A stretch of DNA of 64,000 nt, from positions 576,001 through 640,000 of the forward strand of contig CAWHAE010000012.1 in assembly GCA_963827235.1 (NCBI GenBank), given 5' to 3'. Positions 236 through 33,585 of the stretch are shown here, piece by piece; position 1 is the first letter of the stretch, and each line of letters starts with the position of its first letter. A program made the translations under genes and the position numbers. The DNA comes from an uncultured bacterium. Its GTDB lineage: Bacteria > Chloroflexota > UBA5177 > JANWHV01. Under the pieces are notes generated by a model. It was given only the letters and a program-made list of their open reading frames with translations, was not told the origin of the DNA and searched no databases.

Positions 236-1576
236 ATGGACCAACGCGACCGCAATTTAGAGACGCTTGCGACGCAGGCAGCCTCCTCGGGAATGAATCG
301 CGCGACCTTCATCAAACGTGCCTTGGCGCTCGGAGCGTCGATTCCCGCCATAGCTTATGCTCTCGAGGCACTCGAGGGTCCGGCATCGGCGTACGCGGCA
401 TCCAGCAGCCCGGTGCAGATCACGTTTGGCTCCTGGGGCAGCATCGACGAGCAGATCACCGCCAACGCAATCCTCAAGGTCTTCGAGGCGCGATACCCCA
501 ACATCCAGGTTCAGCCCCAGTACACAGACTTCACCAGCTACTTCATTCGTCTCAACGCCGACCTGGCCACGAAGAGCATCCCCGACGTGCTGTTCCTGAC
601 CTACGTCCCCACCTACGCTTCCAAAGGGGCGCTGGCCGACATCCGTTCTCTGGCCGCCAAGCACGGCAAGAACATTGCCGGTTATACGAACGCAGAGCTC
701 TTCCTGTTTGAGTGGAACGGCGGCCTGTACGGCGTGCCGCGCGACAACGACACGAAGGTAATCTTCTACAATCGCAAGCTGTTCCAAAAGGCGGGCGTCG
801 CCTATCCCAAGGACGGCTGGAGCTACGATGATTTGCGGGCAACCGCCCTGAAGCTGACGATCGGTAGCGGTGCGCGAGTCAGCCAGTATGGCTACGCCTA
901 CGAGACCGACTTCTGGCGCCTCTGGCTGTGGCAGAACGGTGTGGAGCTGTTCGACAGCGACGCCACGCCCACCAAGGCCATCTTCAACACCCCGGCAGCC
1001 GCCGAGGCGCTGCAGTTCATCGGTGACCTGACGACCAAAGACGACGTCACTCCGCCTGCCTCGCAGATCGCCAGCTCGGCGACGATCGCCTCGCTGTTCT
1101 CGGGCGGCCAGCTTGCCATGGCCTTCGGCAACCACGCCCTGGTGCCCACGTTCAACAAGACGAAGGGCCTCGACTGGTTCGTAGTCGGCATGCCGCACTT
1201 CACCGGGCACAAGGTGGTAAACGCGACGGGCGGCGCCGGCTACTGCATCTCCAAGTTCGCCTCGAATCCGTCCGCGGCGTACCAGTTATGGGACTTCATG
1301 ACCGGCCCCATCGCCTCGCTCGATTTCGCGGCCGGCGACGACATCGTGCCGCTCAGCCCCGAGGTGCTGAGCTCGTCGACCTGGACCAGCAAGCCGTACA
1401 ACAAAGTATTCACCGCCCAGACCAAGCTCGGGCATGACTTCCCGTCCTTTGCCAACGTCGGGCCTGTCTTCAGCGCCATCGACTCGGCTCTACAGCCGAT
1501 CTGGATTGGCGAGCAGACGGCAGCGGAGGCCCTGCCCAAGGCAGCGGCCGCCGCGCAGAAGCTGCTGCAGGGGTAG
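236..1576 (+). CDS. Carbohydrate ABC transporter substrate-binding protein with Tat-like signal
   Basis: ATG at 236 after GGGAGAAC; NRATFIK plus hydrophobic leader; family-1 SBP motifs (PDVLF, GLYGVP, IFYNRKLF, FSGGQLAM); followed by two permeases. Confidence 0.9.
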   Translation: MDQRDRNLETLATQAASSGMNRATFIKRALALGASIPAIAYALEALEGPASAYAASSSPVQITFGSWGSIDEQITANAILKVFEARYPNIQVQPQYTDFTSYFIRLNADLATKSIPDVLFLTYVPTYASKGALADIRSLAAKHGKNIAGYTNAELFLFEWNGGLYGVPRDNDTKVIFYNRKLFQKAGVAYPKDGWSYDDLRATALKLTIGSGARVSQYGYAYETDFWRLWLWQNGVELFDSDATPTKAIFNTPAAAEALQFIGDLTTKDDVTPPASQIASSATIASLFSGGQLAMAFGNHALVPTFNKTKGLDWFVVGMPHFTGHKVVNATGGAGYCISKFASNPSAAYQLWDFMTGPIASLDFAAGDDIVPLSPEVLSSSTWTSKPYNKVFTAQTKLGHDFPSFANVGPVFSAIDSALQPIWIGEQTAAEALPKAAAAAQKLLQG

Positions 1577-1596
1577 GCCGGCACTCCGGTGAGGAC

Positions 1597-1627
1597 ACGG
1601 TGGGGGCTGCTCTGCAGCCCCCACCGT
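1597..1627 (+). terminator. Intercistronic stem-loop after the SBP gene (mRNA stabiliser or attenuator)
   Basis: Perfect 14-bp stem ACGGTGGGGGCTGC-tct-GCAGCCCCCACCGT, no U tail. Confidence 0.6.
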
Positions 1628-1655
1628 CGCCGCCGGTGCGCTGCTTGAGCCGCTG

Positions 1656-2609
1656 ATGCCAACTGATGCGCGATCAACATTTCGCTCGCGCCTGGCGCGC
1701 CGTGCCGGCCACCGGGAGGGAGCGTACCGGCGGGGCGATGGACGGGTAGCGATTCTGTTTCTGCTGCCGGACTTCATCCCGTTCGTCATCTTCACGGTGC
1801 TTGGGGTTCTGGCCACGTTCGGCCTCAGCTTCTCGCACTGGGACCTGATCAACGCACCCAGCTTCGCCGGCCTGGACAACTACAAGTACCTCTGGGACGA
1901 CGACCTGTTCCGCAAGGTATTCTTCAACACGCTCTACTACACGCTGGGCGTGGTGCCGCTTGCCACGGCGCTCGCCCTGCTCGTTGCCGTCGGCCTCAAT
2001 CTCAAGCTGCCGGGATCGCTGGTCCTGCGTACGGCGTACTTTTCGCCCTACATCACCACGCTGGTGGCGGCCGCGCTCGTCTTTCAGTGGATCTACGATC
2101 CCCGCGCGGGGCTGATCGATAGCGTGCTCTACGCTCTTGGCGTTCCCAATCCGCCCGGTTGGCTCAACAGCACGACCTGGGCCATGCCGGCGCTGATCAT
2201 CTTCGGCGTGTGGCGGCAGATCGGCTTCAACATCGTGCTGTTCTTGGCCGGCTTGCAGGGCGTGGATCGCTCACTGATGGAAGCAGCGTCGGTCGATGGC
2301 GCAGGGAAGCTGGGACAGTTCAGACACGTCACCCTGCCGCTGATCAGCCCGACCACATTCTTCGTGGTGGTGGTGACGACGATCGGATCCTTCCAGATCT
2401 TCGACCAGGCCTACGCTATGACAAGCGGCCAGTTCTACCCCGACAACGCCACCAACACGTTGGTGGGGTATTTGTTCCAGCGGGCCTTCGTCTTTGCCGG
2501 CTCGAACATGGGCCTCGCCTCCGCGGTTGCCTGGGTGCTGTTCATGCTGGTGTTCGCGGTGACCATGGTGCAGTTCACGATGCAACGACGCTGGGTGCAC
2601 TATGGTTAG
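1656..2609 (+). CDS. Carbohydrate ABC transporter permease (MalF/UgpA-like)
   Basis: Multiple TM helices; EAA loop EAASVDGA..FRHVTLPLISP. Confidence 0.92.
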   Translation: MPTDARSTFRSRLARRAGHREGAYRRGDGRVAILFLLPDFIPFVIFTVLGVLATFGLSFSHWDLINAPSFAGLDNYKYLWDDDLFRKVFFNTLYYTLGVVPLATALALLVAVGLNLKLPGSLVLRTAYFSPYITTLVAAALVFQWIYDPRAGLIDSVLYALGVPNPPGWLNSTTWAMPALIIFGVWRQIGFNIVLFLAGLQGVDRSLMEAASVDGAGKLGQFRHVTLPLISPTTFFVVVVTTIGSFQIFDQAYAMTSGQFYPDNATNTLVGYLFQRAFVFAGSNMGLASAVAWVLFMLVFAVTMVQFTMQRRWVHYG

Positions 2610-13808: not shown

Positions 13809-14099
13809 TTGTTTCCCCCATACTCGGCCATGTCGCCGGCATCATGGTTCGGCCGCGATGCCAACCTCACTGATGCCAACCTGACCGGTGCCACGATCAC
13901 GGGAGTCGTGTGGAACAGCACGGTGTGCTCCGCCAGCACGAACAGCACCAGCAACGACAGTAGTCCGAAGTCGTGCATCGGGCACGGATGGGGCCTGCAG
14001 GCGCCGATCCCGTTCACTGAAGGAGAGCCGCAAGCATGCGGTCCGGCACCCGCATGGCCCGCGCCGAAGCCGCGTGGCTGGAGCAAGCGCAGGAGCTGA
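13809..14099 (+). pseudogene. Pentapeptide-repeat protein C-terminal fragment
   Basis: DANLTDANLTGATITGVVWNSTVC..SCIGHG; N-terminus missing. Confidence 0.55.
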
Positions 14100-19751: not shown

Positions 19752-20332
19752 GGGGCGCACACCGATAGGTGCAGGTTGTCCAGACCGCATCGCATAGCCT
19801 GCAGGTCGCCAGCGCACATCCTGCACTGGCCGAACGCGCCATGCTTATGGCTCAGCATGTGACCTCGGCCCTCTACCTGTGGCAGGTGCGATTCGTTTGC
19901 TCGAAACCAGCTCCGGCTGGGGGATGAGCAGGGCTCCGAGGTCGTGGTGCGTAGCCGCCACCGGGGAGCAACAACTGGTTGTGTGATGTCGGGTGCAATC
20001 CCCGACCCTTCAATTGCAAAGAGGAATGCATCTCCCTCAAAGTAGCGATTGGTCATCAATCCTTGAAGCAGGGAGAAACGCGGCGCAACGCTGAACGCGA
20101 CGGCGTGATGCTGCCGGCAAGTTGCAATGGTCAGCGCAAGCAAATGCCCATCTGAACCGTCGCCAGGAAGGACAGGCCCACGCGAGTTCACGGGCCTGGC
20201 CCAAAAGGGCAGGAATTGGGGCCAGCATCTTTGCCAGTGACTGGTAGGCACTCCCACGAAATCCGGCGGACAGTGTGCACCTACGGCAGCGCCGAACACA
20301 CAATGGGAACGAAGGAACCACTGGCTAGGCTC

Positions 20333-26087: not shown

Positions 26088-28709
26088 CTACTTCACAGCC
26101 GCTCCGGCGGTTGCTGCCTCCATCTCGCCGTGCTTGAACACAAGCCGGCCACCCTCCACGTCGACGAGCACCGTGTCGCCTCCGGCGAAGTCGCCGGCGA
26201 GCAAGGCCGAGGCCAGCGGATCCATGATGCGCCGCTGCAGCACCCGCTTGAGAGGACGGGCACCGTACACGGGATCGTAGCCTTCCTCGGCGATCATGTC
26301 CTTAGCTTCCGGCGACAGCTCCAGATCCACATGGCGGTCGGCCAGGCGCCCGCGCAGAGCCCTGAGTTGAATGTCGACGATCTCGCCGATCTGGCCGCGC
26401 GTCAGCGTGGCGAAGGTGACGACGTCGTCCACGCGATTGAGGAACTCCGGTCGGAAGTGTGACCGCAGCGCCTCGTTCACCCGCCGCCGCATCTCTTCCT
26501 GGTCCGACGGTCCCAGCTCGGCGATGTACTGGCTGCCGATGTTGCTCGTCATCACGATGATGGTGTTCGTGAAGTCAACCGTTCTGCCCTGTCCGTCGGT
26601 GAGCCGGCCGTCGTCCAGCACCTGCAGCAGGATGTTGAAGACGTCCGCGTGCGCCTTCTCAATCTCGTCGAGCAGCAACACGCAGTAGGGCCGGCGACGA
26701 ACCGCCTCGGTCAGCTGGCCGCCTTCGTCGTATCCTATGTATCCCGGCGGGGCACCCACCAGGCGGGACACGCTGTGTCGCTCCATGTACTCGCTCATGT
26801 CGAGGCGGATCATGGCGCGCTCGTCGTCGAACAGGAATTCGGCCAGCGCCCGGGCCAGCTCGGTCTTGCCCACGCCGGTCGGTCCGAGGAAAATGAACGA
26901 GCCCAGCGGGCGGTTGGGATCCTGCAGGCCGGCGCGGGCCCGGCGAAGGGCGTTGGCGACGGCGCCGATTGCCTCGTCCTGGCCCACTACCCGGAGATGC
27001 AGGCTCTCTTCCATGCGCAGAAGCTTGCGCATCTCGGCCTCCATTAGCCGGTTGACCGGGATGCCGGTCCAACGGCTGACGACGGTGGCGATGTCCTCTT
27101 CGCCCACTTCCTCTTTCAGCAGACGCCGTTCCCCTTCACCCGCGTCCAGCGCCGCCTGCTTCTCGCGCAGCTCACGCTCGAGGGCCGGGAGGGTGCCGTA
27201 GCGCAGCTCGGCGGCCCGGTTGAGATCGTAGGCGCGCTCGGCCTGCTCCATTTGCAGCTTTGCCGTCTCGATTCTCTCGCGCAGGTTGCGCACCGCGGTG
27301 ATCGCAGCTTTCTCCTGCTGCCATCGCGCCTTCAGCGCTCCGCCTTCTTCGCCCAGCTCGGCGATCTCGGCTTCCAGGCGCTGCAGGCGGTCGCGCGAGC
27401 CGGCATCGGTCTCCTTTTGCAGGGCCTGGCGCTCGACTTCGAGCTGCATGCGCCGCCGTTCAATCTCGTCGAGCTCCGCCGGCATGGAATCTATCTCCAT
27501 GCGCAGGGTGGCCGCGGCCTCGTCGATCAGGTCGATCGCCTTGTCCGGCAGGAACCTATCCGCTATGTAGCGGTTGGAGAGCACGGCGGCGGCCACCAGC
27601 GCCGCGTCCTTGATCTGTACGCCGTGATGGACTTCATAGCGCTCGCGCAGTCCGCGCAGGATGCTGATCGTGTCCTCCACCGTGGGCTCGCTGACCAGCA
27701 CCTGCTGGAACCGGCGCTCCAGGGCGGCATCCTTCTCTATGTTCTTGCGGTATTCGTCCAGCGTGGTGGCGCCTATGCAGTGCAGCTCGCCCCGGGCCAG
27801 CATCGGCTTGAGCAGGTTGCTTGCATCCATGGCGCCTTCGACCTTGCCCGCGCCGACCACGGTATGGATCTCATCGATGAACAGGATGACGCCTCCCGCG
27901 GCCTTCTGCACATCCTGCAGCACCGCCTTGAGCCGTTCCTCGAACTCGCCGCGATACTTGGCGCCGGCGATCAGCGCACCCATGTCGAGGGCGATCAAGC
28001 GCCGGTCTTTCAGGCCCTCGGGCACGTCGCCGCGGACGATGCGAGTGGCCAGCCCTTCGGCGATGGCGGTCTTGCCCACGCCAGGCTCGCCGATCAGCAC
28101 CGGGTTGTTCTTCGTGCGCCTGGAGAGGATCTGCATCACACGCCTGATCTCGTCGTCGCGTCCGATCACGGGATCGAGCTTGCCCGCGCGGGCAAGCTCG
28201 GTGAGGTCGCGCCCGTAGCGCTCGAGGGCCCGGTACGTCTCCTCCGAGCTTGCCGACGTGGCGCGCTTGCCGCCTCGAACGCTCTCCACGGCGGCGCGGA
28301 TGCGACTCGTCTCACCGCCGGCCTGCCGCAGCAGGTCGCCTGCACGGTCGCCGCGCGGCGACGACGCCAGGGCCAGCAGCAGATGTTCGACCGCGAGGTA
28401 GGCGTCACCCATGCCCACTGCTTCTCCGTGAGCGCGCGTCACGGCGCCGCGAAAGCCGGAGGAGTAGCCGATCTGCGCGTCGCCGCCCACGCGCGGCAAC
28501 CTGGCGATCTCCTGGTCGGCGCGTCGCTTTAGCCCTGCCGGCTCGACCTGAGCCTGGCGCAACACCGCCGTGACCAGGCCTTCCGGGTGCGCGAGCATGG
28601 CGCTCAACAGGTGGAGCGTCTCGACCTCCGGATTGCCATTCGCAGTCGCCTGATTCTGAGCATCCAGGATCGCCTCCTGGGCTTTCTCGGTCAACTGGTA
28701 CTCATTCAT
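26088..28709 (-). CDS. clpB: ATP-dependent chaperone ClpB
   Basis: Two AAA modules ([16 protein letters not shown]), [10 protein letters not shown], coiled-coil M domain with AAELRYG, GARPLKR. Confidence 0.97.
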
Positions 28710-28749
28710 GATTCAACACCCATGCCACGTTTCTTGTACGCTGGACGCA

Positions 28750-28784
28750 TAGAATACTTGATAGTCATTCTATCAAGTATTCTA
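28750..28784. promoter_or_regulatory. HAIR-like (HspR) operator upstream of clpB
   Basis: Perfect 15-bp inverted repeat TAGAATACTTGATAG-N5-CTATCAAGTATTCTA; core CTTGATA-N7-TATCAAG versus HAIR CTTGAGT-N7-ACTCAAG. Confidence 0.7.
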
Positions 28785-28815
28785 CATCGTGGCGGGGCAG
28801 GAATCAAGTCTCGAT

Positions 28816-29406
28816 TCAGGCCATGCACAACTCCTCCTGCTGCATCTCGGGTACCGCTGTGTGCAGGAACGTCTCCACGAAGCTGCCGTCCCACTGCTGC
28901 CCGGCGCCTTCCGCGAGCGCTTCGATCGCTGCGCGTACCGGCAACGCGGGGTGAAACGGGCTTTCGTGGGTCAAAGCGTCGAAGCATTCGGCGATGGCGA
29001 TAATCCGCGATCCGAGCGGAATGCGCTCCCCGCACATGTGGCCTGGATAGCCGTCGCCGTCGAAGCGTTCGTGGTGGTGGAGGACGATTTCCGCCGTGCG
29101 CTGAGCCCCGGGTTGCGCGCGCAGATAAGCGGCGCCACGATCCGTGTGATGGCGCACCCAGCTCCACTCCAGCGGCGTGAGGCGGCGAGACCGCACAAGG
29201 GCCGCTTCCGGCACCGCCAGCTTGCCGATATCGTGCAGCCGCGCCGCGTCGAGAATCAGCTGCGCATCCTTCCCCGTCACGCCCAACGCCTTGAGCGTCG
29301 GCGCCACGAGAGCCGCCACGCGCTTACAGTGCCCCGGCATGCCGGAGCGCACGTCGGCGGCATCGGTAAGGCTGCCCAGTACGGTCATCGCAGTCTCTGT
29401 AATCAT
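28816..29406 (-). CDS. Stand-alone HD-GYP domain protein
   Basis: HCKRVA, LHDIGK, HHERFDGDGYP, IPLGSRIIA; start uncertain. Confidence 0.85.
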   Translation of the reverse strand: MITETAMTVLGSLTDAADVRSGMPGHCKRVAALVAPTLKALGVTGKDAQLILDAARLHDIGKLAVPEAALVRSRRLTPLEWSWVRHHTDRGAAYLRAQPGAQRTAEIVLHHHERFDGDGYPGHMCGERIPLGSRIIAIAECFDALTHESPFHPALPVRAAIEALAEGAGQQWDGSFVETFLHTAVPEMQQEELCMA

Positions 29407-29431
29407 GTTCTCGTCTGGTCGCAGGCACCGA

Positions 29432-29836
29432 TCACCGCCGGATCGGAACCGTGCGACTCGCCCTTTCTGCGCCCTGACTCCGGCCGCTCGGCCAGGTTGT
29501 TGCTGAGGTCGATCCATGATGGAGTGCGCCCACGTACTCGCCGCTGCGCCAAGCACAGACGGGGCGTGTGCCGACCAATCGAATGGGCTCCGTGCCCGCT
29601 TCATACTCCGCCGCACCCCAGGAGCCGTCCTGCGGCGGACGCCCGCAGGCGCGACGACTCACGGCGTCCGCGAACTGCTCCAGCGTCTGCGCCTGAATGC
29701 CGACCAGGGATTCGGCGAGCAACTTGTCGTAGCCGGCGTCGATGGCGGCACACCGCGGGTTTGCCAGCAGGCGCCCGGCAAAGGTGCCGTCCACCGAGGC
29801 CTCGGCGAGTAGCCGTTCGTAGGTGCGAAACCGCAC
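29432..29836 (-). CDS. Small protein resembling NHLP-clan (Os1348/Franean1_4349-like) leader domains
   Basis: ERLLAEASVDGTFAGRLLANP..AGY; AGGAG/GGAG RBS before GTG. Confidence 0.55.
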   Translation of the reverse strand: MRFRTYERLLAEASVDGTFAGRLLANPRCAAIDAGYDKLLAESLVGIQAQTLEQFADAVSRRACGRPPQDGSWGAAEYEAGTEPIRLVGTRPVCAWRSGEYVGALHHGSTSATTWPSGRSQGAERASRTVPIRR

Positions 29837-29958
29837 AGCTCCCTGCTCCTATTCCTGACATAACGCGTCGATGGTAGGATATGTATCGTCCCGGTCACGG
29901 CCATCGACGCCGTGTGCACATGGCAACCGCAATGCTCGGCTCTGAGCCTAGGTGGGGG

Positions 29959-30228
29959 CTATGCGTTGAGCGACTCACTATCGGCAGCGGCTACAGGCGC
30001 CTGCTGCGCGAAGGGCTGCGCGCCAAGCCCGTCGGCTAGCAGCGACGTGGCGGCAAACGGCTGCGCGCCGAGACCATCCGCGATCTTCGAAACGTGGGCG
30101 AACGGCTGCGCACCCAGCCCGTCGGCCGTGGAACGGCCCGTGTTGTGCGTGGGTGAGATGCTTGCGGACGATAGCAGGGAACCGGCAACGAGGCTGCTGA
30201 CCGTGATGGCGGCGACAAGCTTGCGCAT
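29959..30228 (-). CDS. Secreted 89-aa multicore propeptide (3 x ADGLGAQPFA)
   Basis: GAAGGAAAGG RBS; MRK plus hydrophobic signal; three identical 10-aa cores at a 15-aa period differing only at synonymous codons. Confidence 0.8.
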   Translation of the reverse strand: MRKLVAAITVSSLVAGSLLSSASISPTHNTGRSTADGLGAQPFAHVSKIADGLGAQPFAATSLLADGLGAQPFAQQAPVAAADSESLNA

Positions 30229-30281
30229 GGGACTGCCTTTCCTTCGGCTCGATGTGCTCGAGGCCACCTCGAGCTGCCGCC

Positions 30282-30314
30282 AGACTAGGCTTCGTCCCGT
30301 TCCCACACCGTTCC
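30282..30314 (-). promoter_or_regulatory. SARP/BTAD-type activated promoter of the propeptide gene
   Basis: Minus strand GGAACGG-tgtg-GGAACGG-9 nt-TAGTCT; no recognisable -35. Confidence 0.6.
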
Positions 30315-30372
30315 ACGGTTTTTGCCCCCTTGAGCTCGCGGACATCCCTCCGCGCCGCACTGGAGGCTCCTG

Positions 30373-33300
30373 ATGGAGACGCCGGATCTGCTCCCATTCC
30401 CGCTCAGCAAGCTGGCGCCGCCGGTAGCCCGGCGGCCGCCGATCGCGCGACCGCGCCTCTTCGCCCAGCTTGGAAGCGGGAGCCGCCTGCTCCTGGTCAC
30501 CGCTCCTGCCGGGTTCGGCAAGTCGTCCCTACTTGCCTCCTCGATCGCCGAGACCGACCGATCGCCCGACCTCTGGCGGCCTGCGCATGCCGCCGACCAT
30601 CGTTTCGTCTGGTACAGTCTCGACGAGGCCGACGCGGATCCCGGAAGGCTGGTCGACGGCCTGGCTGCGGCCTACGAGCGAGTGGCACCAGGCACAGGCG
30701 GACCGTCCCGGGAGATGCTGGCTGCCGGCGCAAATGTCTATGCCGCTCTGGCCTCGCTAGTGGCGCGGGCCGAGCAGGCTCCCACGACACTGGTCCTGGA
30801 CAATTGCCACAACCTCGAGGGGGCGGGTGAGGCGGAGCGCGCCCTCAGCTACCTGCTCGCGAACTGCCCTTCGGCGCACCGCATCGTGATCGCCGGTCGC
30901 GGTACGCCGGCCACTCCTGTTGTTGCCGCCCTGGCAGCCGGCGCCGTGCGCTCCCTTGGCCCGGACGATTTGCAGTTCGGCGACGACGAAGCGGCTGCGC
31001 TGGCCGCGTTGTACGGCGTGTCCGAGGACCGGGCTGCCGCCGTGGTGCAGCCGGCGGCAGGTTGGGCCATCGGCATTGTGCTGCTGGCACATGCCGGCGG
31101 TCGGGATGCCGCCATCCTGCAGCGCCCGATTGACGCGCTGGCCGACTACTTGATGAGCGAGATCGTCGACCGGCTGCCCGAGGCGTCACGCAGGTTCGTT
31201 CTGGAGAGCGCGCTGCTCGGAACATTCGATGCTGCGGCAGCCGACGCGATCCTGGAGCGCACGGACAGCGCACTCGTGATCGACGGCCTCCTCCGACGTG
31301 GCATCTTTCTGGACTGCTTCCCTTCGCAGGACGGATTCCTCACCCGCTATCACGATCTGTTTGCCGCAGCCATGGCCGGCCGCTTGCAGCGCCAGGAGCC
31401 CCGGCGATGCCGCGAGATTCACCGCCGTGCCTCCGACTACTATGCGGACGATCCTCATCGGGCCCTGGCACACGGCGCGCGCATGCACGACCCGGACTAC
31501 CTGGCGCAGCAGCTCGATCGCTACCTGCCCATGCTGCGCCGGGCCGGGCACTGGGAAGCTCTGGTCCGCTACGGGGAACAGCTCCCGGTCCGATTGCAGT
31601 CCCTGTTTCTCCAACGCGTGCTGTCGTTCGCTCATTACACTCGCGGCGACGATCGGGCCGCGCTGGCAGCTGCCGACCGCGTGTACGAGGCCGCGGTGGC
31701 CCAGGGAGATCGGGAAGCACGCTACTCGGCCCTCGTGTTGCGGGCGAACACGCACTTCAGACAGGAACGGTATGCCGAGCTCCTGCAGTACTGCCTACCT
31801 GCCCTCAGCGAGGCGCGCGCGGCCGGCTTTGCGCTGGGCGAATGCTGGCTGGCATGGAACGTTTCCAAGGCGCTCCTGCGTGAGGGCCGTGTGCGGGAAG
31901 GCCTGGCCATGGTGAGCCGCACGCTCGAGCTGTATCGCTCGCTACCCGGGCCATCGACACCGCTCTCCATGGCCTTCTACGAGCAGGACGTTGTCCCGAT
32001 ACTGCTCGAGACCGGCGATTGCGAGCGGGCGGAACGCTTGCTTGCCGATGCCGGGGCGATCGCGGGCGACTTCGACGACCGATCGCTCGTGCTGGCTTGT
32101 GAGGCGACGAGGGCGGAGATCCTTCTGTTGCGCGGAGAGTTCACGGCAGCGGCGGACCTCGCCGAGCGCGAGGTCTCGCTCACGGCGCGGGAGGGCAGTC
32201 CCATCGCGCACTACACGGCTCTGCGCGCCCACGCCCTCGCCTGCTCGGCGCTGAGGCGGCACGACGACGCACGGCGAACGCTCGACCGGTACGTGGACTT
32301 TGTCGTCACCTGGCCCGGCACCGTCCGGCTGCAGGCGGAGGTCACCCGCATCAGACTGGCATTGGCGGCGGGCGACTCGGGCGCCGCCCGCCGTGATCTG
32401 GCCGCTCTTGGTGCCCTGGATCCGCCCGAGCGTCTGGCGGCGGAGATCTCACTGGAGGCCGGGACGCTTGCCCTGCTGGAGGGGCGCGATCGCGACGCCG
32501 ACCGTCACCTCGGGTGTGCGGCGACCGTGCTGGCGCGATACGCCCGCCGTCCGGCGGCGGCACTGGCGCTGGTCCTGCGTGCTCAAGCCATGGTGCATCT
32601 GGGCAAGCAGGCACGCGCGGCGACCATGCTCGGCCAGGCGGGGGAGCTTGCCTGCGATGCGCAGTGGCTTCCGTGGCTCGTTCACCATTCGGCAATGGCG
32701 ATCGAGACGCTGCGGACCGTGGAGTCGTACTGGAGACTCCAGGGTAAGGCGCGCAAGCTCTATGAATCGCTGCTGGAGAGCGTGCCGAAGGCTGCCACGC
32801 AGACGGCCGTGCGGCGCCAGTCGCCTCCGGCCGCCGTAGGCACGCAGGATGGTTCTCTCGAGCCGATCGTCTTCAGCCCATTTGGCAGCGGCACCATGAC
32901 GCTGCATGAGGCCACCGTGCCGCTCTCCAGAATCGGAGGCGGGAAGGCCCAGGAGATGCTGGCCTATGCGATCTGGCAGGCTCGGCCTCTGCATCGCGAA
33001 GAGATACTGGAGGCGGTGTGGGATGGAAGGGTCGACGAGCAGTCGCTCAGCGCCTTGAGGAAGGCAGGCTATCAGATCCGTCGTCTGCTCGGCGAGCAGG
33101 CGTGGCAGCGCGCTAAGAGCATCTACACCTTCATGCCGCCTGTGGACGATGCCTATCGCTCGCTGCTGGCGACAGCAGTGGGCATTCGCGACCTGAAAGG
33201 GACGCCGGCCGAGGTCGCCGTCTTGGCCGCCCGGGCGCTCGCCAACTACTCGGCACCCTACTTGAGCTGGTGCTACAGCGACTGGGTGGAGGAGCCGCGC

Positions 33301-33585
33301 AGCCTGGCGGAGACGGCGGCGCTGGCTCTGATCGAGGCGCTGGCGCAGGCACGCAGGGAGCTCGGACAGCCACTGATGGCGCTGGAGGCACTTGAGCGCG
33401 GACTGGCCATGCAGCCCTACAACGAGTCGCTGCGGCGAGCGCACGTACAGCAACTGCTCGAGCTGGGCAAGCCGGTCGACGCCGCAGCAAGCTACCAGCG
33501 CCATCTTCGCGTGCTGAAGGATGAGGATCTGGGCGCGCCGTCGAGCGAGTTCCTCACACTGCGCTCGGCACTACCGACGGCGTAG
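30373..33585 (+). CDS. MalT-like STAND ATPase + TPR-like sensor + wHTH + BTAD transcriptional regulator
   Basis: GGAGG RBS; KLAPP..RPRL, APAGFGKS, WYSLDEAD.DP, LVLDNCH, GWAIG, RYHDLF; C-terminal HREEILEAVW, DWVEEPR, PYNE. Confidence 0.87.
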   Translation: METPDLLPFPLSKLAPPVARRPPIARPRLFAQLGSGSRLLLVTAPAGFGKSSLLASSIAETDRSPDLWRPAHAADHRFVWYSLDEADADPGRLVDGLAAAYERVAPGTGGPSREMLAAGANVYAALASLVARAEQAPTTLVLDNCHNLEGAGEAERALSYLLANCPSAHRIVIAGRGTPATPVVAALAAGAVRSLGPDDLQFGDDEAAALAALYGVSEDRAAAVVQPAAGWAIGIVLLAHAGGRDAAILQRPIDALADYLMSEIVDRLPEASRRFVLESALLGTFDAAAADAILERTDSALVIDGLLRRGIFLDCFPSQDGFLTRYHDLFAAAMAGRLQRQEPRRCREIHRRASDYYADDPHRALAHGARMHDPDYLAQQLDRYLPMLRRAGHWEALVRYGEQLPVRLQSLFLQRVLSFAHYTRGDDRAALAAADRVYEAAVAQGDREARYSALVLRANTHFRQERYAELLQYCLPALSEARAAGFALGECWLAWNVSKALLREGRVREGLAMVSRTLELYRSLPGPSTPLSMAFYEQDVVPILLETGDCERAERLLADAGAIAGDFDDRSLVLACEATRAEILLLRGEFTAAADLAEREVSLTAREGSPIAHYTALRAHALACSALRRHDDARRTLDRYVDFVVTWPGTVRLQAEVTRIRLALAAGDSGAARRDLAALGALDPPERLAAEISLEAGTLALLEGRDRDADRHLGCAATVLARYARRPAAALALVLRAQAMVHLGKQARAATMLGQAGELACDAQWLPWLVHHSAMAIETLRTVESYWRLQGKARKLYESLLESVPKAATQTAVRRQSPPAAVGTQDGSLEPIVFSPFGSGTMTLHEATVPLSRIGGGKAQEMLAYAIWQARPLHREEILEAVWDGRVDEQSLSALRKAGYQIRRLLGEQAWQRAKSIYTFMPPVDDAYRSLLATAVGIRDLKGTPAEVAVLAARALANYSAPYLSWCYSDWVEEPRSLAETAALALIEALAQARRELGQPLMALEALERGLAMQPYNESLRRAHVQQLLELGKPVDAAASYQRHLRVLKDEDLGAPSSEFLTLRSALPTA

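Follow-up and report, generated by a model that had tools for sequence, protein, structure and literature searches.

The 64,000-nt stretch of contig CAWHAE010000012.1 analysed here (hereafter, the window) comes from an uncultured bacterium of the phylum Chloroflexota and contains a small gene for a pro-peptide in which the nonapeptide ADGLGAQPF occurs three times. The gene belongs to a cassette of four, which consists of a divergent gene for a regulator with STAND, TPR and SARP-type domains, the gene for the exported-type repeat peptide, and the genes for an NHLP-like small protein and an HD-GYP protein (Table 1). The cassette recurs throughout the genus, and the cores of the peptide differ between genes. 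According to our analysis, the peptide may be a ligand of the adjacent regulator.

Table 1. Features of the cassette region, in window positions
Feature	Position	Strand	Remarks
Pro-peptide gene	29959..30228	-	ATG at 30228, stop at 29959 (stop within coordinates), 89 aa
Core copy 1, ADGLGAQPF	30100..30126	-	read from the sequence with the codon table
Core copy 2, ADGLGAQPF	30055..30081	-	read from the sequence with the codon table
Core copy 3, ADGLGAQPF	30010..30036	-	read from the sequence with the codon table
Signal-peptide-like N-terminus	30160..30228	-	approximately residues 1-23; MRK, then 22 uncharged residues ending SSASIS
Shine-Dalgarno-like GGAAAGG	30236..30242	-	7 nt ahead of the ATG of the peptide gene
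-10-like hexamer TAGTCT	30282..30287	-	9 nt downstream of the second heptamer
Two GGAACGG heptamers, direct repeat	30297..30314	-	30314-30308 and 30303-30297, 11 nt start to start
STAND-TPR-SARP regulator gene	30373..33585	+	1070 aa, divergent from the peptide gene
NHLP-like small protein gene	29432..29836	-	134-aa open reading frame; conserved helical domain at approximately residues 1-66
HD-GYP protein gene	28816..29406	-	Pfam HD_5, E 2.9e-31; motif HHHERFDGDGYPG

The pro-peptide gene and selection on its core

The product of the peptide gene can be written as MRKLVAAITVSSLVAGSLLSSASISPTHNTGRST-ADGLGAQPF-AHVSKI-ADGLGAQPF-AATSLL-ADGLGAQPF-AQQAPVAAADSESLNA. Together with the codon of a tenth residue, the three copies read gcc gac ggg ctg ggt gcg cag ccg ttc gcc (30126-30097), gcg gat ggt ctc ggc gcg cag ccg ttt gcc (30081-30052) and gcc gac ggg ctt ggc gcg cag ccc ttc gcg (30036-30007), and each is translated as ADGLGAQPFA. 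The first-pass annotation of this DNA had given the same codons and the same spacers of 5 aa each (HVSKI and ATSLL), and both agree exactly with the minus strand. A repeat search returned three copies at 45-nt spacing, and Tandem Repeats Finder reported a period of 45 with 2.5 copies.

That annotation had also described all differences among the copies as silent, which is borne out by the count: the minimal number of base changes among the three copies is 8 in the 9-aa core and 1 in the tenth (Ala) codon, all 9 are silent third-position changes, and replacements are absent. With a silent share of 0.26-0.31 expected of random single-base changes in the core codons, the chance of 9/9 silent changes is ~6e-6 to 2e-5, and that of 8/8 is 2e-5 to 7e-5. 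The within-gene core differences of the four type A genes (those of the window, G002, L039 and L040) amount to 21 silent and 0 replacement changes, and those of five type B genes to 29 silent and 6 replacement changes (binomial p 1.4e-10 at 0.30 silent). The suggested comparison of core and spacer was made between the window gene and its orthologue at L039: the 27 core codons have 12 synonymous-only and 0 replacement changes, whereas among the 39 aligned non-core codons 11 changed synonymously only and 18 by replacement (Fisher p 2.7e-4). These counts support the earlier proposal that purifying selection acts on the exact core peptide. The core was likewise taken to be the functional unit, and this reading stands, as the copies are kept identical within a gene while cores differ between genes and spacers and tails are free to change. 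A protease-like site had been proposed in the residues STA, KIA and LLA; this part finds no support so far, since the Ala belongs invariably to the repeated unit itself (A-[DE]-G...), preceded by two variable residues.

The open reading frame (ORF) itself had been considered real, and we agree because of the silent-only core changes, the existence of homologues and the lack of a better-fitting frame. The overlapping plus-strand ORF at 29912-30373 reads three differing units (AKGCAPSPSAS, ANGCAPRPSAI and ANGCAPSPSAV), and because these are non-identical, the conservation fits the minus-strand frame; the check for an alternative frame that would fit better found none. The GC content by codon position of the peptide ORF is 0.68/0.57/0.77, with the order GC3>GC1>GC2 also seen in the genes of ClpB and the regulator. 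At the position equivalent to the Shine-Dalgarno-like site of the window, the G002 orthologue has AGGAGGA. The AlphaFold2 (AF2) model of the pro-peptide, a weak one built on a shallow alignment, has a helix at residues 2-17 only and coil beyond (mean pLDDT 47.7).

The genome counts given in this work are drawn from related metagenome-assembled genomes, several of them incomplete, and an absence is to be read as not found in those searched; the class of the window is represented by 21 genomes in the collection. Besides the genome of the window (G000), a convincing precursor match was found only in G002, of the same genus, first among 41 related genomes and then among 401 genomes of the phylum. 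The precursor profile gave 12 other matches in the 401 genomes at E 7e-4 or weaker, most of them inside long ORFs. A word-indexed search of 5.8 billion proteins returned a sole relative, P0002, which is 75% identical and has the same three cores with other spacers; its metagenome locus is L039. The G002 gene encodes three copies of ADGSGTQPF, i.e., L>S and A>T in every copy, and its copies differ silently only. A scan of metagenomes added L040, in which ADGIGVQPY occurs three times.

When 1.84 billion representatives were searched with a profile, 18 matches were obtained, of which 16 were inspected; the long matches P0006 and P0014 were left out. Nine of the 16 are further small precursors with a signal-like N-terminus. 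Their cores are 3x ADGIGVQPY, 3x and 2x ADGLGAQPF, 3x ADGGTQPF, 2x AEGGGVQPF, 3x ADG[IM]GQKPYPPR, 5x ADTVGNNPL, ADGSGTQPF with ADGSGTLPL, and ADSGGTTPL with ADGAGTGPL. The remaining seven, all long, are unrelated repeat or low-complexity proteins. It had been asked whether homologues would present the repeats as structural units of a folded protein; no such homologue was found, the seven long matches inspected being unrelated.

All copies are identical in 10 of the 13 type-A-like precursors, and there are at least 8 core variants between genes. Across the family, the core unit is 7-12 aa long and occurs 1-7 times, with spacers of 5-7 aa and of variable sequence. By its position, the second spacer (A[AST]TSLL or SSVHLL) is recognisably orthologous. 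The three-copy layout is therefore older than the core changes, and the cores must have changed in concert, either by parallel change or by short-tract conversion. Since then, the type A cores have gained silent differences only. A crude n-region/h-region rule for signal peptides was passed by 19 of the 21 family members, and a lipobox-like Cys is found in each of the five type B members. The peptide genes, which are annotated as “hypothetical” or not called at all, thus appear from their sequences to be an unannotated family of exported repeat peptides within a STAND-regulator cassette. The first-pass suggestion that three copies would amplify the signal per precursor is plausible; the copy number in the family is 1-7, and the role as a signal is suggested by the gene context.

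The conserved cassette and its promoter region

The NHLP-like gene served as the marker for tracing the cassette. As a single-sequence query, it was found in 5 of the 401 phylum genomes, all five of the window’s genus, and as a profile it revealed 10 loci in 5/5 genomes of this genus. Each of the ten has a small signal-like ORF with 1-7 short cores directly upstream on the same strand. The cores are 7x SAGGANGGPL (own genome of the window, contig C16), 5x ASGITSGPL-like, 4x SVNTGSGPL, 3x NTSGGPL and 2x GGVPAxxGPL; a single core was found at two loci (..IQPGPL..) and on contig C10 of the own genome (..GAGSPPIF..). Nine loci include the divergent STAND-TPR-BTAD regulator, and the tenth is cut by a contig end. 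HD-GYP as the third gene was confirmed by Pfam at 6 genus loci; at two type C loci a receiver domain takes its place (L048 by Pfam, L049 by eye). The same gene order was found on two metagenome contigs. A search for related loci among the genome contigs returned 3 loci only, on the same contigs as G002, G003 and G004.

Genes outside the four differ from locus to locus; the neighbour families include ClpB, HD-GYP, glycosidase-like proteins, fumarase, receiver domains, aminotransferase and MutL. No maturase of ribosomally made, post-translationally modified peptides (RiPPs), peptidase or exporter was conserved at the cassette loci scanned with Pfam and NCBIfam. PADLOC assigned no defence family to the regulator, the peptide or the NHLP-like protein, and for HD-GYP gave a trivial weak match to the HD domain of Cas3.

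In the regulator, Pfam matches were obtained for AAA_16 (residues 29-172), TPR_12 (452-523), TPR_MalT (503-608) and BTAD (938-1057), and a paralogue in the own genome has a weak match to Trans_reg_C (OmpR-type winged-helix) just before BTAD. The NCBIfam MalT model matches residues 12-481 with 146.8 bits against a cut-off of 537 bits. The regulator was rejected as a MalT equivalog, because the score is far below the cut-off, the coverage is partial, and the C-terminus is BTAD/winged-helix rather than a LuxR-type HTH. No RRNPPA family was present in the Pfam and NCBIfam listings of the regulator. The own genome holds three paralogous cassettes, whose regulators are 24-45% identical by domain, with the sensor region among the least conserved parts.

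The NHLP-like protein matched Pfam PF14407 with E 1.1e-5 (26 bits, cut-off 48) and NCBIfam NF038399 with E 2.8e-6 (27.3, cut-off 40). Its profile matches in PDB were 6lk7 (Os1348), E 0.0096, and 8tb1, E 0.079. In the AF2 model, pLDDT is ~90 for residues 1-60 and <50 for residues 67-129. Foldseek gave no match to this fold at E<=1e-3. The best Z in VIA-align was 4.5, and the values of 3.4-4.4 to Os1348 and RiPP precursors were not above background; with a best Z of only 4.5, no family can be named from the structure. The nearest named cluster of the ESM Atlas is ‘Franean1_4349 family RiPP’ (score 0.86), which we treat as a lead only. All relatives have an ORF of 84-95 aa, compared with 134 aa in the window. 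The 44 additional residues (29432-29566, minus strand) have a GC content by codon position of 0.62/0.73/0.67, i.e., no coding pattern, and a pLDDT of <50; the extension looks like the result of a lost stop codon, with the frame running on towards the HD-GYP gene.

Orthologues point to MITETAM, at 29406, as the likely start of the HD-GYP protein; the longest ORF reaches 29616. Reads of one DNA sequencing run covered part of the HD-GYP gene and none of the peptide gene. HD-GYP also follows the NHLP-like gene at L030, L031, L033, L034, L050, L039 and L082. At L039, two tandem HD-GYP genes follow the NHLP-like gene (663-2049, plus strand), compared with one in the window.

The region upstream of the peptide gene contains the two direct GGAACGG repeats and the -10-like hexamer. 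AAAAAYCGTGGAACGNTNTGGGAACG is an invariant block holding GGAACG twice in all three type A loci with upstream sequence (window, L035 and L040), and in the same alignment the T, A and final T of a TAnnnT box are invariant. The seventh base of the heptamer is equal in both copies of a locus and differs between loci (G,G / T,T / C,C). The pair is a candidate binding site of the SARP-type domain of the regulator, as judged from its arrangement. A sigma-70 consensus scan did not call the TAGTCT box, which would fit an activator-dependent promoter without a -35 box. The GGAACG pair has one exact match in the window and 3 in the 8-Mb genome, compared with ~0.9 expected, and for this reason no regulon can be proposed. 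Type B loci have another conserved pair, CAGGGTG-N4-CAGGGTC, also 11 nt apart and near the regulator start.

Between the peptide gene and the NHLP-like gene lies a spacer of 136 nt, whose folding does not surpass that of shuffled sequences (z -1.25); no terminator-like site was found, and a search of Rfam over 28500-31000 gave one sub-threshold small RNA match only (E 0.24). The sole sigma-70-like match in 28600-30700 is located at 28779-28807 on the minus strand (TTGATT-17-TAGAAT), just upstream of clpB (26088-28709, minus strand); clpB therefore probably has its own promoter and lies outside the cassette operon.

Comparison with known systems and possible functions of the peptide

Two known systems resemble the cassette. 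In Streptomyces, AfsR, which is composed of SARP, STAND ATPase and TPR modules, activates the adjacent afsS gene (PMC10832544). AfsS-like proteins are described there as having 2-5 short repeats with low identity between species, and the repeats are needed for the binding of AfsR; this binding strengthens the hold of AfsR on promoters (PMC10832544, PMC2267785). AfsR is reported to bind direct repeats 8 nt upstream of a -10 element (PMC11301090). All three regulator modules are also present in the window’s regulator, and the adjacent gene likewise encodes a small protein of short tandem repeats that diverge between lineages (three in the window, 1-7 in the family). The candidate site would be similar in position, with the GGAACG pair 9 nt before the -10-like TAnnnT box in the three type A loci. 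The differences are that the module order is permuted (with the MalT-like ATPase at the N-terminus and the SARP domain at the C-terminus), that the peptide family has a Sec/lipoprotein-like signal, whereas AfsS is described as cytoplasmic and ‘sigma-like’, and that the cassette adds the NHLP-like and HD-GYP proteins and belongs to Chloroflexota, not Actinomycetota. AfsS and the window peptide were compared by description.

The second system is the RRNPPA family (Rap/Rgg/NprR/PlcR/PrgX/AimR), described from Bacillota and their mobile elements (PMC10075063). Its propeptides carry 1-4 repeated pheromones, which leave the cell through Sec, are cut outside and return through Opp to be bound by TPR-type receptors; the units have 5-10 aa, are identical or slightly different, and have lineage-specific sequences (PMC11343458). 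The cassette shares with it a small propeptide gene adjoining a TPR regulator gene (9 of the 10 genus loci) and short, repeated, lineage-specific units (7-12 aa), and probably also a secretion signal (the N-terminus is signal-like in 19 of 21 members by the crude rule). It differs in that the candidate receptor is a STAND NTPase with SARP output rather than an RRNPPA-family protein, in having up to 7 copies, and in co-encoding the NHLP-like and HD-GYP proteins.

There is a partial similarity to the MalT/LAL group too, since the MalT model matches the ATPase and arm at the N-terminus and a MalT-like TPR sensor follows; the output is of the SARP type and not of the LuxR type. The ligand of MalT is a sugar, not a peptide. 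With the NHLP clan (the Os1348 family NF038399, and PF14407, Frankia_peptide), the NHLP-like protein shares a ~65-aa helical domain with weak profile matches, but its gene lacks SagB, GNAT and HEXXH neighbours and is always beside a STAND-TPR protein. Overall, the cassette is a variant akin to AfsR/AfsS pairs and to tandem pheromone propeptides, and a member of neither family.

Based on these comparisons, we favour the explanation that the peptide is an exported, processed, multi-copy nonapeptide ligand of the adjacent STAND regulator, with HD-GYP as part of the output, and give it a probability of about one half. A short-peptide ligand is suggested because the 9-residue unit is conserved, diversified between lineages and constantly paired with a sensor-type regulator; the AfsR/AfsS-like gene-pair architecture and promoter, together with an RRNPPA-like export signal, favour the exported multi-copy form. 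In such a scenario, the SARP-type C-terminal domain of the regulator would bind the GGAACGG repeats and activate the operon of the peptide, NHLP-like and HD-GYP genes. The pro-peptide would leave the cell by its Sec-type signal peptide, and extracellular cutting would release three copies of the nonapeptide. After re-import, the nonapeptide would bind the TPR sensor and favour the active, oligomeric, ATP-bound state of the STAND regulator. This would close a positive loop, with an output that includes the breakdown of cyclic dinucleotides by HD-GYP. As each lineage has its own cores, the peptide-regulator pairs could operate as private channels, similar to pherotypes. We infer the export, cleavage, re-import, TPR binding, activation by the regulator and the role of HD-GYP. 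The own genome has 33 matches to the family of Opp/Dpp-type binding proteins, a finding that is permissive for re-import only. A complex prediction for regulator residues 430-860 with pro-peptide residues 24-89 gave no answer either way (score 0.01, against a mark of 0.32).

Several observations weigh against this explanation. To our knowledge, and leaving the AfsS protein aside, no peptide ligand is known for a STAND regulator of the MalT/AfsR type. By its domain matches, the regulator appears to lie outside the RRNPPA family, and the cassette loci scanned have neither a peptidase nor a dedicated transporter in common. The conserved repeats of the type B loci are ~250 nt from the peptide start and beside the regulator start, and may serve the promoter of either gene. 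The model gives no role to the NHLP-like protein, which is present at every locus and might itself partner the TPR region.

The wider family supplies another such observation and leads to a different possibility. At L082 in G076, which belongs to another family, the order is a STAND-TPR-BTAD regulator, two small multi-core ORFs, the NHLP-like gene and HD-GYP. The small ORFs (G076:C95, 4929-5397, minus strand) contain NPESFGS units parted by [VM]K[SR] (VKS/MKR, basic pairs); the repeats begin right at the start of these ORFs, with no signal peptide ahead of them, and one ORF is interrupted by a run of N. The alternating units differ at silent sites only. Export is therefore not universal in the wider family, and a cytoplasmic AfsS-like mode would seem to fit this locus better. 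For the window, the corresponding alternative is an unprocessed repeat protein, cytoplasmic or tethered to the membrane by its hydrophobic N-terminus, which binds the TPR region as a co-regulator; as a multivalent ligand, it would aid STAND oligomerisation or the promoter hold, and no cell-to-cell signalling would be involved. The gene-pair architecture and promoter repeats resembling those of AfsR/AfsS, the leaderless ORFs of G076 and the copy number varying between 1 and 7 all agree with this, as does the description of AfsS-like proteins as having likewise 2-5 repeats with low identity between species (PMC10832544). However, the signal-like N-terminus in 19 of 21 members and the lipobox-like Cys in all five type B members are hard to square with a cytoplasmic partner, and the existence of single-core members means that multivalency is not required. 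We consider a co-regulator of this kind unlikely for the window’s family.

We put just as little weight on a multi-core RiPP precursor, in which the cores would be modified, the NHLP-like protein would be a second precursor or a helper, and the STAND-SARP protein would regulate the pathway to a secreted natural product, e.g., an antibiotic. SARP regulators typically control secondary metabolism, and hypervariable repeated cores with conserved flanks do resemble multi-core RiPP precursors. The neighbouring protein has weak matches to RiPP families of the NHLP clan, and Os1348 of Pseudomonas sp. Os17, the prototype of NF038399, is reported from a cluster with GNAT, a HEXXH peptidase and a SagB-type dehydrogenase (PMC7726476). 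Yet no maturase, peptidase or exporter is conserved at the scanned cassette loci, although an unlinked enzyme is possible; the N-terminus is a Sec/lipoprotein-like signal rather than a RiPP leader; and the NHLP matches all fall below curated cut-offs, with weak structural matches (best Z 4.5).

Rather improbable, in our view, is an exported peptide with some other extracellular role (antagonism, surface or matrix, metal or nutrient binding) that is merely regulated by the STAND-SARP protein. It would account for the signal-like N-terminus and for the strong selection on the core, and diversification between lineages also suits antagonistic peptides. What it leaves unaccounted for is the tight, ancient pairing with a sensor-type regulator across paralogues of only 24-37% identity. 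No immunity gene or exporter is conserved, and the short, Gly/Pro-rich, uncharged cores would seem unlike typical membrane-active peptides. We find it very hard to believe that the repeats serve as building units of a small secreted protein with a folded or fibrous structure, in spite of the regular 15-aa period and the Gly- and Pro-rich units, since AF2 predicts no fold for the mature part, the units number only 1-7 (single-unit members included) with spacers that differ in length and sequence, and the seven inspected long profile matches proved to be unrelated repeat proteins.

In its broadest form, the favoured explanation of an exported ligand describes cell-to-cell signalling in Chloroflexota, in which an exported, multi-copy, AfsS-like nonapeptide would be the direct ligand of an NLR-like (STAND) transcription factor that drives a cyclic-dinucleotide phosphodiesterase, with lineage-specific cores as private channels. 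This full picture is tentative, and we would sooner expect at least one of its parts to fail. If it is true, AfsR/AfsS-type pairs and the pheromone systems of Bacillota would be two forms of one theme, short repeated peptides read by TPR sensors, and STAND regulators would join the known receptors of peptide pheromones. Peptide pheromone systems have so far been described essentially from Bacillota in the papers cited above, and understanding of how AfsS-type repeats affect AfsR-type STAND regulators began only recently; the cassette unites both themes in an uncultured soil/sediment lineage. No description of the cassette or of Chloroflexota peptide signalling was present in the literature searched, which did not cover subscription journals. 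With at least 8 core variants and three paralogous cassettes in one genome, these loci provide a small, experimentally convenient natural set of peptide-regulator pairs.

The NHLP-like gene beyond the genus and other repeats

The cassette also draws attention to a recurrent, unexplained partnership of NHLP-like and STAND-TPR proteins. The NHLP-like profile matches 61 of the 401 Chloroflexota genomes, and in public data the family comprises at least 73 clusters; those with a name are all ‘hypothetical protein’, and the organisms stated are all Chloroflexota. In three genomes of family f26, a STAND-TPR-BTAD gene is located upstream of the NHLP-like gene in the same direction, and in one of these genomes an ORF with a signal peptide, ending ..GGTGGPPTGH, lies between the regulator and NHLP-like genes. 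In family f13, the NHLP-like gene directly follows that of a 1442-aa adenylate/guanylate cyclase-STAND-TPR protein. Since the NHLP-like protein recurs beside STAND-TPR proteins of different output (SARP with HD-GYP, and cyclase), it may interact with the sensors.

An NHLP-like gene (its product ending ..SKSAGRGFF) behind a cyclase-STAND-TPR gene was seen at L083 (G230:C1, 2017-10332, minus strand) and also at L056, L062-L066, L068, L070 and L076. In that context, it precedes the genes for a 1227-aa HEAT-repeat protein, a ribonucleotide-reductase-small-chain-like protein and an SDR.

The window has two more short tandem repeats, at 19755-19820 (29-nt period, x2.3) and at 13856-13893 (15-nt period, x2.5). 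Outside it, a genome-wide scan for tandem peptide repeats revealed long repeat stretches with a period of 26 aa (78 nt) and more than one open frame, on two contigs of the same genome (G000), C8 (197.9-200.9 kb) and C12 (319.3-322.6 kb).

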